A stretch of 62,984 nucleotides of DNA, counting the filler, from Asterionella formosa (taxonomy: Eukaryota): assembly GCA_002256025.1 (NCBI GenBank). It is 23 parts of 23 records of this genome, joined end to end, with 100 filler letters (N's around TTAATTAATTAA, not from the genome) between each part and the next. Parts side by side here need not be neighbours in the genome. Positions count along the whole stretch, not along the records: positions 27,498 to 30,142 come from NKIB01015005.1; 22 more parts are not named here. One strand, written 5' to 3'. Below the pieces are notes generated by a model. That model worked only from the letters and a program-made list of their open reading frames with translations, did no database searches and had not been told where the DNA came from. Positions 2,755 through 30,142 of the stretch are shown in pieces. Position 1 is the first letter of the stretch. Every line of letters starts with the position of its first letter. The position numbers and the translations under genes were made by a program.

Positions 2755-4089
2755 GGCTTTTCCATCAGCATTGGATATCTTCACTTTGTTCTTGTCATTC
2801 ACAGCCAAGTTCCTAAGTGCTCCACAACCATACTCTTGCACAGTAGCATTTGAGGAATGAATCTTCATTGCAGACAGAATCATAGTGATACCTCCTGCTT
2901 CAGCAATTGTCACCTCGTTGTTGTCATTCTTAGCCAAGTTCGCAAGTGCTCCACAACCATATCCTTGCACAGTAGCATTGGAGGAATGACTCTTCATTGC
3001 AGACAGAATCATAGTGATACCTCCTGCTTCAGCTATCGTCATCTTGTTGTTTTCATTGCAAGCCAAGATCCTAAGTGCTGAACAACCATTTTCTTGCACA
3101 GTTGCATTGGAGGAATGAGTCTTCATTGAAGACAGAATCATAGTGATACCTCCTGCTTCAGCTATCGTCATCTTGTTTTTTTCATTGCAAGCCAAGATCC
3201 TAAGTGCTCCACAACCATAGTATTGCACATTAGCATTTGAGGAATGAGTCTTCATTGCAGACAGAATCGTAGTGATACCTCCTGCTTCAGCAATCGTCAC
3301 CTCGTTGTTGTCATTCTTAGCCAAGTTCGAAAGTGCTCCACAACCATAGTATTGCACATTGGCATTTGAGGAATGAGTCTTCATTGCAGACAGAATCGTA
3401 GTGATACCTCCTGCTTCAGCTATCGTCATCTTGTTGTTTTCATTGCAAGCCAAGATCCTAAGTGCTGAACAACCATTTTCTTGCACAGTAGCATTGGAGG
3501 AATGAGTCTTCATTGCAGACAGAATCATAGTGATACCTTTTGCTTCAGCAATTGTCACTTGGTTGTTTTCATTATTATAAGCCAAGTTCCAAAGTTCTGC
3601 ACAACCTTCTGTTTGAATGTTAGCATCCTGCTCATTCATTCTCATCTTTGAAAGAACTGCAGCAATCGGAGACGGAATTGAAGTGGCAGGAGACCCTTGG
3701 TTATTCATAGGATCTTGATCGCATCTAGGGCGGCAGTCTCGCACAGTCTCATCAACTCCAAAACAGATTCTCTTTGCGCTCCTAACGAGCTCTGCTTGTA
3801 CGCCATACTCAGACACAATTGGAGCTTCATGCTTATTGCGGTTGTATGAAGCGCTGACTTTGATGTCGCCACACTCTAACCCAATTGCAGCTTCATGCCG
3901 AATCTTTGTAGGGACGTATGAAGCATCGAGGTTATTCGCCATGGGTGATTTATGAAAGGACGCTTCTTTATTCGTGGTGGGATTTGATCGTGCCCGTACT
4001 GCACAGCTGGTTCCTCCTGGTCGTGTTTGAACTACCGTAAAACCTGGTTTCTCGTATCCTTCCAGATACCTGTACCCCCGTTTGTACAT
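2755..4089 (-). CDS. Armadillo (ARM) repeat protein, 3' partial
   Basis: About 7 tandem 43-aa repeats (N..N...IAEAGGI..IL.AMK.H..N..VQ..GC.AL.NLA). DNA period is 129 bp (GCCAAG anchor at 2804, 2933, 3062, 3191, 3320, 3449). The true start codon is uncertain. Confidence 0.9.
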
Positions 4090-24010: not shown

Positions 24011-24204
24011 TCTAAGCCGCGTATTACGTGAAGTGACCATCACATAAATAAGCCTAGTTAATTTTGAATGCATCACATGAATTAGTTGAAAACATCAAAA
24101 TACGTAGTTGAATATATCTATATATTATTTGAATACATCACGTTAAATATTTGATCAAAGTATCATGCATGCATTCCTGATCATCACTATATTATGTGAT
24201 CACC

Positions 24205-24303
24205 TTCACATAATTATTTGAAATACTTCACATAATTATTTGAAATACTTCACATAATTATTTGAAAATACTTCACATAATTATTTGAAATACTTCACGT
24301 AAT
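24205..24303. repeat. 22-bp tandem repeat (TTCACATAATTATTTGAAATAC) x ~4.5 in an array of TTCAC(A/G)TAAT motifs
   Basis: Read directly from the sequence; degenerate copies extend over about 24020-24400. Confidence 0.9.
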
Positions 24304-24751
24304 TCTGTAATTTCGTTCACATAATTCTAGAATAAAGTTCACTTAATATGTAACACATTTGTTTACGTAATTTTCTGGAGTTCATTCAACTAAATTAAAG
24401 AGTTTCATTAATGAAATAAAGCCTGCTCATTCGGAACGGCATGCGAATGCTCCTGCACTGAAAGGGTTTGCTGCAATGTCAATTGAATGTAGAGGAAGAT
24501 CAGTGTGAGTTATCAGTAGCGTTGCGCATATAGCCGTCAAAATAGCGCAGTAATCTTACCAGAACAACTTCCATTCCGGACCTCATTGTCCCTGCCTGTT
24601 GTCAACAACAATGCGTGAGCTGACAAGCCATACTAGCATTTTTCGCCGACTNNNNNNNNNNNNNNNNNNNNNNNNNNNNNNNNNNNNNNNNNNNNTTAAT
24701 TAATTAANNNNNNNNNNNNNNNNNNNNNNNNNNNNNNNNNNNNNNNNNNNN

Positions 24752-26780: not shown

Positions 26781-27330
26781 TAGCGGATTTGTCATATCCC
26801 TTCCTTAAGACCAAATATGTAATGAACAAAATGATTATTGCCACAAGATGATCTCTTGCAGTACACTATAATCACATAGGCAAAGTCACTCAATATACAA
26901 TGGGTGACAATTGCCGCTGTAAGTGTCTCCACCACAATCCATTTGTGGATTGTAATCAACATCCACAATAACAGCACTCACATTGGTTGGATGGAGTTCA
27001 TGTGTTTTGAATCGAATGAGATTTTGAATTGTTGGAAAATCCCAATATGAAAGAGATTTGAACTCCTCAATTTCTTTTTTGAAATTTAACAAGTTATAAG
27101 TCTTTGCAGCATAAGTACAGACTTCTTGGGGAGTTCAAGAATAAAGTTCTTCCCATTGCTCGATTTGTGGCTTCGTTTCGGGAATGTTCATGTACATGAA
27201 GGTTTGAATAGGAAACATGAGTTGATGTAATTGAAATGAAATTTTCTCTATATATGAATTGCCCTCGGGATTCTCCATGATGGAATTATTGACAGAATCT
27301 TTTTCTGATTATGGTATTTTTGTTCTTCAA

Positions 27331-27397
27331 GGGTTAGGGTTAGGGTTAGGGTTAGGGTTAGGGTTAGGGTTAGGGTTAGGGTTAGGGTTAGGGTTAG
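27331..27397 (+). repeat. Telomeric repeat (TTAGGG)n, about 11 units, at the contig end
   Basis: Perfect GGGTTA array with the G-rich strand running toward the contig end. Confidence 0.95.
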
Positions 27398-27599
27398 NNN
27401 NNNNNNNNNNNNNNNNNNNNNNNNNNNNNNNNNNNNNNNNNTTAATTAATTAANNNNNNNNNNNNNNNNNNNNNNNNNNNNNNNNNNNNNNNNNNNNGGT
27501 GAACAACATAGTGGCAGTGTGCGGTATAACTCTGTCATTATTGCTGGAGACATCATTGTAACCTGGTAGTAACAAGGACTTTATCATATGCCAAAATGG

Positions 27600-28410
27600 T
27601 TTTACATTTGGCAGATCCAGCTTTAATATTTTAAGCTGTCAGTATAATTCTTGAAAGGAAACACTTGCATGGCTTTTCCTTCCATAGTATTTGCAAGTTC
27701 TTTGTATTTTGCAGTTGTTTTGAATGTTTGTTTCAACAAACGAATAGGAGGGTGATAGATTTTCTCGGAAGTACAAAAAGATTTTGCGACATGTAAAAAT
27801 GGATCATCTTTTTCTTCTGTTCCAAAAAACTCATCTGGAAGGAAAGATAGATTGAGGAAAAAACGCATTCTTGTTCAATTCCGTCGATAACATAAAGGAA
27901 GTTATCTTTTTCTCAGAACTGTTTTGATTAGCCGTAATGAATCAGTGATGAAACATAGGAAGTCTTCTATCTCTGCTGCATTCGGCGGCATATTGTTGTC
28001 TTTCTGATGTAGTCTAAAATCTCGAGGAAAGTGAGTCTTCCATAAAATCATCGCTGGTCCTATATGATTCCGAAATTTCCTTGAAGTTCCAAATGATGTT
28101 TAGTTAAACAAGCCAGACTCTAGGACCACAGAGAATTTGTTGAGAACAAAATCCAGGACACTGTCATCTAGCCTTGTCTCCTTGCCTTTGTCATCATGAT
28201 CAAAGTATCTAACCAGTAAGAGTCGTTCCTTACTTTTCCGTTGTCTCTTGAACAGACATGAAATGCGCCATAGAAACACGTTTTTCCTGATTGAACAATC
28301 TGCAATCGGTACCCCTTCACAACCATTATCGTTCCATTCCTTGTAGCACTCGGAACATTTGCCATTCCGCCCAGATAACACATGACATATTGCACTATCG
28401 ATAGCGTGCG
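27600..28410 (-). pseudogene. Degenerate multicopy gene of unknown family (CxxC near the N-terminus)
   Basis: A long reading frame broken by stops (GKCSECYKEW...RYFDHDDKGKE.RLDDSVLDFVLNKF...). 28026-28235 recurs at 46387-46584. Confidence 0.45.
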
Positions 28411-28539
28411 GATGTCAAGAGAAACAAGGAAGCAGAAAGGGATAATGGTCTGTCAACAAAGGATTAAACAGTGGGCGAGTGCTGGATCAGAAGCGATGCA
28501 GCACCGACATACTCAGTAATATACATTAGATTGGTACCG

Positions 28540-28927
28540 CAAAGCTACAGTTTCATAGTACCAGCGTAGTAATAGGTATAGTTTCTTAGTACCAGCGTCA
28601 TGTTCCGACCGGGTATTGAAACAAGGGGAAGAAGGGAATGCTGGTAGTGCAAACCTACAGTCTCACAGTACCAGCGTAGCAATAGGTACAGTTTCACAGT
28701 AGCCACGTCATGTTCCGACCGGGTATTGAAACAAGGAGAGGAAGGGAATGCTGGTAGTGCAAACCTACAGTCTCACAGTACTAACGTAGTATTGTACAGT
28801 TTCACAGTAGCCCCATCATGTTCCGACCGGGTATTGAAACAAGGGGAAGAAGGGAATGCTGGTAGGGAAAACCTAGTACAGTCTCACAGTACTAATGTAG
28901 TATTGTACAGTTTCACAGTAGCCACGT
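28540..28927. repeat. ~110-bp satellite, left arm
   Basis: Units begin CATGTTCCGACCGGGTATTGAAACAAGG at 28599, 28709 and 28817, with a partial unit before them. Confidence 0.95.
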
Positions 28928-29920
28928 TATGTATGCCACCCTCTACTTTGCAATTCACGAGATACAAACCATCCCAATGTTTCCACAAATATCCTTCTCC
29001 AGAAGGTATATTGATGATTGCTTCATAATCTGGGTCCCTACATCAACTATCAATATCGAGGATGACAAAACACACAACTTGTTTATCAACTCGATGAATA
29101 CTTTTGGCATACTTAAATGGAATGCAGAACCACGACGGTTATCAACAACTTTCCTGGATCTCACAATCTCTATCAATAAACATACCCGTTCTATTGATAC
29201 AACACTTTTTGAAAAATCCATGAATCCCTATCTCTATATACCACAACATAGTGCACACCCTCCTGGTGTCCTTCGCGGTCTTATTGCTGGAATGATTCAC
29301 CGGATTTACCATTTAACAACGGTTGACACACATTTCAAAACTGCAATCCATTCTTTCTACAACCGCCTACAGGTCCAAGGTTATTCGGATAAAACCCTTA
29401 TACCCATTTTTAATACATACATCAAACAGCTATATGTTAACAAATCGAACAAAACCAACATGGCCACTCAAAGAACGGACACACACACAGAACAATGCGT
29501 GTTCCTCCACATGCCATTCCATCCGAACAACCCTCCTTCATCTCACATTCAACGAATTTTCAGAGACACTATATTTTCCCCGGGTAAAGAACCAATTCTT
29601 ACCACCCTACGGAACTTCTCCGGAAACCAATGTACCATCCAACAAAATATTGGTAATAATACATCACCACGGAAATTGAGATCGGACACCACTTCAGTAA
29701 GTACTCACCTACTTACGATACAACTTGATACTACACGGGATACATCAACCTCTACGAGGTCCATGCTACCTTCCCCTCCTACTATCAATACTGCTTCCAC
29801 TCCTGGTGTAATTTCACAGCCAACCACGCCCGCCCACACCATGACTTAAATAAAACAAGACTACCGGTACAGATCCAAGCCAACTGATGAAGCCCCTTCA
29901 GGCGAAAAGTAACATTAGTC
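28928..29920 (+). mobile_element. Penelope-like element, 5'-truncated (RT C-terminal half and thumb; no GIY-YIG visible)
   Basis: YATLYF, RRYIDD.FIIW, G.L.W, FLDLTI, T.LFEK.MN.YLYIP..SAHPPG.LRGLI.G, RL..QGY, FLH.PFHP.NP.S..IQ; ORF 28929-29849. Confidence 0.88.
29875..29920 (+). ncRNA. Hammerhead-ribozyme-like core (type I), lacking the 3' strand of stem I
   Basis: CTGATGA-A-GCC-ccttca-GGC-GAAA, then ag-TAA-ca-TTA-GTC, located in the PLE 3' UTR where hammerheads are expected. Confidence 0.6.
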
Positions 29921-30142
29921 TCAATGTTCCGACCGGGTATTGAAACAAGGGGAAGACAGGAATGCTGGTAGGGCAAACCTACAGTTTCACAGTACTAACG
30001 TAGTAATAGGTATGGCTTCACAGTAGCCACGTCATGTTCCGACCAGTATTGAAACAAGGGGATGACGGGAATGCTGGTAGGGCAAACCTTCAGTTTCACA
30101 GTACTCATGTAGTAATAGGTATGGCTTCACAGTAGCCACGTC
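29921..30142. repeat. ~110-bp satellite, right arm
   Basis: Units at about 29924 and 30033, same consensus as the left arm. Confidence 0.95.

Follow-up and report, generated by a model that had tools for sequence, protein, structure and literature searches.

A truncated Penelope-like retroelement that ends within a predicted hammerhead ribozyme interrupts a satellite array of Asterionella formosa

Background

How does a retroelement that seems to have no endonuclease come to lie inside a satellite array, and was the RNA from which it was copied cut by the element's own ribozyme? These questions are raised by a locus of Asterionella formosa (assembly GCA_002256025.1), where a 995-bp insert breaks a 110-bp satellite at positions 28929-29923 of the window, that is, the whole stretch of 62,984 nt analyzed here. 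This insert, placed in phase in the satellite, is what remains of a dead Penelope-like retroelement (PLE) of an endonuclease-less kind; its 3' end holds about two thirds of a predicted hammerhead, and it stops 7 nt short of the predicted cut site. A previous inspection of the DNA, hereafter the sequence-only reading, had placed the end of the insert at the cleavage triplet itself and had taken it as a record of a ribozyme-cut RNA being reverse transcribed. The present analysis corrects the proposed anatomy of the ribozyme and weakens the idea of a ribozyme-cut template, which we nevertheless keep as a tentative explanation, with rather less than even confidence: the template may have been cut by the ribozyme and copied from a few nucleotides inside its 3' end.

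Endonuclease-less PLEs and hammerheads in protists have already been described, and the part played by the ribozyme in transposition is unsettled. Athena and Coprina are endonuclease-deficient PLEs (Gladyshev & Arkhipova 2007 and Arkhipova et al. 2017, as cited in PMC8557442 and PMC6431247). The hammerheads of telomere-associated PLEs from protists and fungi are of type I, have a large helix III and are active as monomers; moreover, in PLE hammerheads helix II usually has a bulged base on its 5' side (Cervera & De la Pena 2014, PMC4209133).

Results

The insert breaks the satellite at one point of the unit

The window is an artificial composite in which linkers of the form N44-TTAATTAATTAA-N44 connect 23-24 contigs, each about 2.65 kb long, so that 46 runs of 44 N, in pairs flanking TTAATTAATTAA, separate the contigs. 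Features on either side of a linker are therefore not physically linked, and the contig that bears the insert spans 27498-30142 only. Within the window the 110-bp satellite is confined to this contig, where Tandem Repeats Finder (TRF) reports it upstream of the insert at 28532-28932 (3.7 copies, 88% matches) and downstream at 29924-30142 (2.0 copies, 93%). Four satellite unit junctions were aligned with the two insert junctions using MAFFT, and contigs from four runs, three of DNA and one of a poly(A) metatranscriptome (X7), were placed on the contig. The main features are the following.

28532-28928, no strand: upstream satellite block of 3.7 units, ending with ..GTAGCCACGT and T28928, where the satellite has C (TRF, sequence and junction alignment)
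28929-29923, plus strand: the insert, an endonuclease-less PLE copy of 995 bp, 5'- and 3'-truncated (uniqueness, homology and unit lengths of relatives)
28929-28932, plus strand: ATGT common to the element (codons Met-Tyr) and the satellite (C-ATGT-TCC), recognized by eye
29924-30142, no strand: downstream satellite block of 2.0 units, reaching the contig end (TRF)

The array is broken at one point of its unit, between ..GTAGCCACGT(C) and ATGTTCCGACC.., and has the same phase on both sides: upstream it halts at ...GTAGCCACGT (28927), followed by the T at 28928, and downstream it restarts at ATGTTCCGACC (29924) with phase unchanged. One contig each of runs X2 and X8 reads position 28928 as C. 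No second copy of the insert and no other PLE piece were found elsewhere in the window, and the insert is about one quarter as long as the 3.4-3.9-kb units of its relatives.

The junctions allow more than one reading. ATGT at the 5' junction may be either microhomology or a 4-bp duplication, the latter being considered because ATGT recurs at 29924-29927; at the 3' junction, TCA (29921-29923) is common to the element and the satellite (G-TCA-TG). The insertion product can thus be read in three ways that look the same in the sequence, as a 4-bp duplication, as the loss of one C or as microhomology at both ends. Neither a clear target-site duplication nor a tail was found at the two junctions.

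The insert is the C-terminal part of a telomerase-like reverse transcriptase gene

The insert has an open reading frame (ORF) of 306 residues (28929-29846) closed by a stop codon at 29847-29849, and one site within it is a deletion.

28929-29849, plus strand: remnant of the reverse transcriptase (RT) ORF, 306 codons and stop, beginning right after motif B and containing YIDD, a conserved LYLP.HSAHPPG block and a tail rich in serine, threonine and proline; no endonuclease domain
29643-29644, plus strand: place where 27 nt are deleted in frame, by comparison with one contig of RNA run X7 (hand translation; consensus of relatives)

Of 1026 candidates from a search restricted to longer proteins, 214 were relatives at E<=0.001. 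The best of them matches the insert frame with an E value of 8.4e-55, 41% identity and 86% coverage; most RT relatives are 540-720 aa long and lie on contigs of 2.5-4 kb. The fragment is colinear with these proteins from just past motif B (GTAMGTPPAP, after which it starts with MYATLYFA) via YIDD to the C-terminal blocks. The window copy is considered 5'-truncated because its alignment to full-length relatives begins only after motif B, and it retains the C-terminal ~40% of a TERT-like RT gene. TRF, the junction alignment and the 214 relatives thus bear out the earlier proposal of a 5'-truncated PLE RT remnant inserted at a single point of the satellite unit.

The assignment to PLEs comes from the relatives. 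They carry LGL(N/K)F and TDKNLGP blocks that by eye fit the GxKF/Y and DKG motifs, named as PLE motifs in PMC8557442; these motifs stand at the start of 26 aligned full-length relatives, in the N-terminal part that the window copy has lost by truncation. An AlphaFold2 model of the full-length relative P0007 (pLDDT 86.4, pTM 0.80) has as its top PDB match the telomerase structure TERT 3du5_A (E 5.5e-9), with human telomerase at TMq 0.40-0.41; other telomerases, viral RNA-dependent RNA polymerases and group II intron RTs score close behind 3du5_A. The nearest ESM Atlas clusters carry DUF8422 and HTH_animal and are mostly from Rotifera, which is to be read as a lead only. Nothing significant came from searching the PDB with a sequence profile (best E 0.14), and Pfam on the insert translation returned only a sub-threshold DUF2461 (E 0.1).

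The fragment has also decayed. A contig of run X7 (545 nt, ~96% identical outside indels) has 27 additional letters after 29643, which translate by hand into R-L-I-I-A-Y-N-R-P, a conserved block of the relatives (consensus RxIVAYHRP). These letters restore the block, and therefore the window copy carries an in-frame deletion.

Two observations point to an element family without endonuclease. No additional N- or C-terminal domain appears in the alignments of the relatives, and the window ORF ends in its S/T/P-rich tail, in agreement with the earlier statement that no C-terminal endonuclease is present. In addition, Pfam reported no family, GIY-YIG included, in the six full-length RT relatives submitted (P0002, P0007, P0010, P0106, P0116 and the RT of locus L004) or in the one upstream ORF1 (that of L004). 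The silence of Pfam is weak evidence on this point, because RVT_1 and the precomputed DUF8422 and HTH_animal went unreported too. We read the family as probably endonuclease-less. The sequence-only reading had left two choices, an element without endonuclease or an N-terminal endonuclease removed by truncation; the first is kept, and the second seems unlikely, given that full-length relatives start with the PLE motifs.

A predicted hammerhead divided between the window copy and transcribed copies

The core of the predicted hammerhead lies 35 nt past the RT stop, on the sense strand, where CTGATGA (29884-29890) is followed by a 3-bp helix II (29892-94 with 29901-03) and by GAAA (29904-07). The parts that lie inside the window are listed below; loose-end letters are those of the RNA-run contigs beyond 29923, counted from 1.

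29879-29883, plus strand: 5' strand of helix I, GCCAA, the reverse complement of loose-end letters 8-12 (TTGGC); paired by hand
29884-29891, plus strand: core box CUGAUGA (29884-90), then a single A (29891) that bulges out just 5' of helix II (sequence and descriptor)
29892-29903, plus strand: helix II, GCC with GGC, 3 bp and a 6-nt loop (descriptor; predicted in a 48-nt fold, whereas the other two folds pair the stretch otherwise)
29904-29912, plus strand: core box GAAA (29904-07) and the 5' strand of helix III, AAGTAA (29907-29912), the reverse complement of loose-end letters 1-6 (TTACTT); paired by hand
29913-29923, plus strand: loop III, 11 nt, holding GTC (29918-20) and the terminal TCA (29921-23), with which the copy ends (sequence, RNA contigs and junction alignment)

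The window copy therefore holds about two thirds of the predicted ribozyme (the 5' strand of helix I, both core boxes, helix II, the 5' strand of helix III and loop III) and is without the 3' strand of helix III, the cut site and the 3' strand of helix I. By itself, the motif composed of both core boxes with a helix II of 3 bp or more is not significant, with one match in the window against 0.455 expected per shuffled window. The window stretch alone gave no hammerhead fold (three folds; z -1.07, +0.81 and -0.77). A covariance scan, which had been suggested as a check, was likewise silent: Rfam had no match in the whole window at the gathering score, and on 29700-30140 at E<=10 its one match was an unrelated snoRNA (E 7.9).

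The missing letters are found in RNA-run contigs. In run X7, the match of two contigs to the element extends as far as 29923, after which they run on with sequence unlike the satellite (median 161 letters, agreement 0.95). Loose-end letters 1-6 are complementary to 29907-29912 and letters 8-12 to 29879-29883, so that hand pairing predicts a monomeric type-I hammerhead with a helix I of 5 bp, a helix II of 3 bp plus the bulged A, and a helix III of 6 bp closed by the 11-nt loop 29913-29923. The predicted cut site is U-U-U, after loose-end letter 7, that is, 7 nt beyond 29923. Eleven of eleven letters complementary in exact register would be met by chance with a probability of about 2e-7 for one register. 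This agreement, together with the placement of the core 35 nt after the RT stop and on the same strand, is unlikely by chance.

A degenerate hammerhead at the 3' end of the insert, with CTGATGA, stem II and GAAA, a GTC at 29918-20, satellite 3 nt later and no TTGGC following in the window, had been described before, and all of this holds. It had also been proposed to look in fuller copies for the missing TTGGC, which is indeed present behind 29923 in the X7 contigs. The junction alignment matched the region of loop III to satellite ...ACAGTAGCCAC...; this likeness may be due to chance, and it lies on the wrong side of the break for aiding priming.

The transcribed copies diverge by ~4% from the window copy, and the 18 letters visible past helix I in the loose end contain no CCCTAA repeat. 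Another X7 contig contains a diverged RT piece of 134 nt (29184-29317, ~87% identical), joined in the sense strand to CCTAACCCTAACCCTAAC with a TAAC overlap. The orientation of this piece beside (CCCTAA)n is the one expected for priming on a G-rich overhang, and it has the appearance of a copy set on telomeric repeats after internal priming or truncation.

Related elements carry predicted hammerheads of the same design

Relatives of the insert were found in a prokaryote genome collection, with five PLE loci and further loci from the same four bins. L003, L004, L005 and the contigs of bin G003 (L011, L013, L015 and L016) are eukaryote-type two-ORF PLE units of 3.4-3.9 kb, tandem or circularly assembled, found in bins of bacterial metagenome-assembled genomes; G003 contains at least four different PLE contigs. 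Such contigs are most likely eukaryotic contamination of the bins. In a viral contig collection 14 pattern matches included no relatives. A metagenome contig (L001), the sole locus returned by the IUPAC pattern of core and helix II, is unrelated, GC-rich and bacterial-looking, and was discarded as a chance match.

A descriptor was applied to 10 loci and to 500 shuffles of them; it demanded a helix I of at least 4 bp, a helix II of at least 2 bp with optional bulge, a helix III of at least 4 bp and a nucleotide other than G at H17. It gave four matches in the loci against two in the 500 shuffles (0.04 predicted by the shuffles); a stricter version gave one match against none in 120 shuffles.

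L004 3730-3833, RT sense strand: hammerhead (descriptor)
L005 249-300, RT sense strand: hammerhead upstream of ORF1, at the contig start (descriptor)
L015 639-684, RT sense strand: hammerhead (descriptor)
L016 1085-1134, minus strand, which is the RT sense strand: hammerhead (descriptor)

All four are thus on the RT sense strand and lie 3' of the RT gene, except that of L005, which is instead upstream of ORF1. Their helices III have 5-6 bp and loops of 6-50 nt; their cut sites are UUC, AUU, GUU and GUU, so that H17 is U (N-U-U) in three of the four, and a base is bulged ahead of helix II in three of the four. L002 and L013 have too little downstream sequence for a hammerhead, and a hammerhead-like stretch recognized by eye in L003 (3125-3200) has an extra base in its CUGANGA box, fails the descriptor and was not counted. 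On loci L002-L006 Rfam reported at E<=1 only mir-883 (E 0.078) and missed L004 and L005, both positive with the descriptor. The hammerheads of this clade, with their N-U-U sites, bulged base and long helix III, escape the Rfam models.

The arrangement of the units is clearest in L004 (1-5811), a head-to-tail tandem with a period of 3442-3443 bp in the order ORF1 (372 aa), RT (606 aa), hammerhead, ORF1; in L003, matching contig ends of 95 nt lie 3922 nt apart. Two further features of L004 were observed. Its upstream hammerhead (287-390) differs from the downstream one (3730-3833) by a mutated box, CTGACGA to CTGACGT, a change from which loss of activity would be expected. A 9-nt telomere-complement word, ACCCTAACC, occurs in both tandem units (461-469 and 3905-3913), 72 nt past the hammerhead and about 20 nt before ORF1, and may mark the unit boundary.

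Other features of the contig and of the window

In the contig of the insert, the 1 kb upstream of the satellite (27498-28530) is highly repeated in run X1 and present in RNA run X7; its broken minus-strand ORFs (e.g. 28100-28414) gave no Pfam family. The preceding contig (24752-27397), unrelated to that of the insert, terminates with (TTAGGG)n at 27334-27393 (~11 units; 27330-27397), which is probably a chromosome end, and tblastn with five RT relatives as queries detected no PLE in it. A 22-bp tandem repeat of 5.5-6.5 copies is found at 24204-24347 in another contig.

Discussion

From which template was the insert copied?

Our tentative explanation starts from the head-to-tail units of relatives, in which a hammerhead lies between the RT gene and the next ORF1. 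Self-cleavage would yield a unit-length RNA ending 7 nt past 29923. A broken end of satellite DNA, without any endonuclease of the element, would then prime reverse transcription a few nucleotides inside the RNA 3' end, in loop III, with at most three common letters (TCA) and possibly one extra A. The cDNA would halt or switch in the RT gene just past motif B and would be joined to the other satellite end via ATGT; decay would follow, with the 27-nt in-frame deletion and the ~4% divergence from the transcribed copies. The broader part of this account, an insertion at a pre-existing satellite break without element endonuclease, begun near the RNA 3' end and settled on its 5' side by short microhomology, is an inference. 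The cut template is suggested by a stable monomeric hammerhead design, by tandem units that would yield unit-length RNA and by a junction that falls merely 7 nt from the predicted cut in units of 3.4-3.9 kb.

Several points weigh against a cut template. The 7-nt offset means that the end of the insert and the cut do not coincide, and a single copy can demonstrate no pile-up of 3' ends; moreover, no contig of another run bridges either junction, among those listed. The letters downstream of 29923 come from two contigs of one poly(A) metatranscriptome run, are ~4% diverged, show 30 letters and were paired by hand. Both contigs read through the predicted cut for ~160 nt; since they traverse it, uncut molecules exist, or DNA, which an RNA library can hold. 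With its U-U-U triplet, its 3-bp helix II and its additional A, the ribozyme may be a weak one. As for published systems, in the in vitro study of PAc, an endonuclease-bearing PLE, hammerhead mutants left insertion unaffected, reverse transcription began at internal sites and no RNA-seq reads ended at the cut (PMC11167929). In Athena and Terminon the telomere-complement tail sits 3' of the hammerhead (PMC6431247), and therefore that template was not cut at that hammerhead.

Some of these points lead to an alternative that we regard as possible and take seriously, in which the same endonuclease-independent, RT-mediated route used an uncut RNA. Synthesis would have started internally in loop III, either through RT initiation inside a terminal stem-loop or through a foothold that loop III gave to the DNA end, and the nearness to the cut would merely reflect a hammerhead close to the normal 3' end of the element. 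PAc offers a precedent, its RT beginning internally in a stem-loop independently of hammerhead cleavage (PMC11167929), and telomere-attached endonuclease-less PLEs retain sequence 3' of the hammerhead (PMC6431247, PMC8557442). The run-through contigs of X7 favor an uncut template, and the ACCCTAACC word of L004, present in both units, suggests that units end beyond the hammerhead, although this is weak evidence. On the other hand, PAc belongs to a distant endonuclease-bearing clade and has a weak minimal hammerhead, priming anywhere in a longer 3' region makes a landing 7 nt from the cut less expected, and the RNA letters just past 29923 have, by eye, almost nothing in common with the satellite after the junction.

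An event at the DNA level, without any role for the ribozyme, is improbable. Microhomology-mediated end joining at a double-strand break of the satellite would have captured part of a PLE tandem array or a free fragment of cDNA or DNA; otherwise, a longer insertion would have been trimmed by a later deletion. Such a capture would suit the short common letters at both junctions (ATGT and TCA), the lack of a clear target-site duplication or tail and the truncation of both element ends, and the tandem arrays of the relatives could shed fragments. However, a random fragment end would fall within 10 nt of the cut with a chance of ~20 in 3400, and the satellite phase, kept within 1-4 nt, speaks for one clean insertion and against a later deletion.

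Very improbable, in our judgment, is an assembly artefact in which the 2.6-kb contig misjoins satellite and PLE reads. The contig is indeed short and consists entirely of repeats, no bridging piece is present among those listed, and in run X1 word depth, summed per bin, is 10-50 times as high in the satellite as in the insert. Both junctions are nevertheless at the same point of the satellite unit and in phase, an outcome not to be expected of a chimera at two junctions; the common words of 3-4 nt are far below the k-mer length of an assembler, and contigs of X2 and X8 cover 28928.

The literal form of the sequence-only reading, with TAA-ca-TTA as helix III, cleavage at GTC (29918-20) and the insert end as the end of the cut RNA, has its letters in place and the satellite restarting 3 nt after GTC, yet it can hardly be correct: its 2-nt hairpin loop is sterically impossible and was seen in none of three folds, the base after GAAA is unable to pair with the G of GTC, GTC lies within the 11-nt loop III of the 6-bp helix III that the RNA-run contigs give in register with a 5-bp helix I and another cut site, and the relatives have helices III of 5-6 bp with N-U-U triplets in three of four.

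Comparison with known systems

The likeness to Athena and Coprina consists of a TERT-like RT without GIY-YIG, a hammerhead near the 3' end, 5'-truncated copies, head-to-tail arrays (in the relatives of the present element) and, for one diverged X7 fragment, a position abutting (CCCTAA)n in the sense strand. Unlike them, the window copy has the 110-bp satellite on both sides, within its 2.6-kb contig, and is not at telomeric repeats; it is also without a reverse-complement telomeric stretch and ends inside the hammerhead, not beyond it. By most of the features compared, the element would belong with the endonuclease-deficient PLEs and work as they do; the telomeric traits that define Athena and Coprina are wanting in this copy.

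The predicted ribozyme is a member of the known type of protist and fungal PLE hammerheads, with which it shares the type-I form, a long helix III stable as a monomer, varied helices I and II, no evident loop-loop contacts and the bulged base. It departs from them by its predicted U-U-U site (A/G-U-U in three of four relatives), by being invisible to Rfam and, in the window copy, by the presence of the 5' two thirds only.

As in PAc (2024, PMC11167929), the insertion ends at an internal site of the RNA, within a stem-loop close to the hammerhead, where homology to the target is slight or absent. PAc encodes a GIY-YIG endonuclease, starts ~90 nt from the cut and can dispense with cleavage, whereas in the window only 7 nt separate the boundary from the predicted cut and no encoded endonuclease is found. 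The locus also resembles the endonuclease-independent insertion of L1 (Sen et al. 2007, PMC1920257) as a retroelement copy at a presumed pre-existing break; it differs in belonging to another class of retroelements, and here the break in the satellite is itself inferred.

Hallmarks of endonuclease-independent L1 insertion are 3' truncation, a missing target-site duplication and junction microhomology. Among the 10 best of 80 matches in the literature there was no account of microhomology at PLE insertions or of endonuclease-independent PLE insertion, by which novelty is not established.

Implications for the biology of the elements

The only in vitro study of a PLE, an endonuclease-bearing one, found cleavage to be dispensable (PMC11167929). 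Whether 3' junctions pile up at the cut or just before it could be tested directly in a family that has a stable hammerhead of monomeric design separating its tandem units, that is transcribed in public RNA runs and that also inserts outside telomeric repeats; the single copy described here shows a boundary near the predicted cut, 7 nt away, and not at the cut. For the two-ORF endonuclease-less PLEs of this protist clade, one may conjecture, more doubtfully than for the single insert, that a ribozyme-cut unit-length RNA is the normal intermediate and that any free DNA end, not just a telomere, can prime on its last few nucleotides. If this were true, a break in the satellite would have been healed by a retroelement RNA that its hammerhead had processed, and the insertion would be the trace of this event in the genome.

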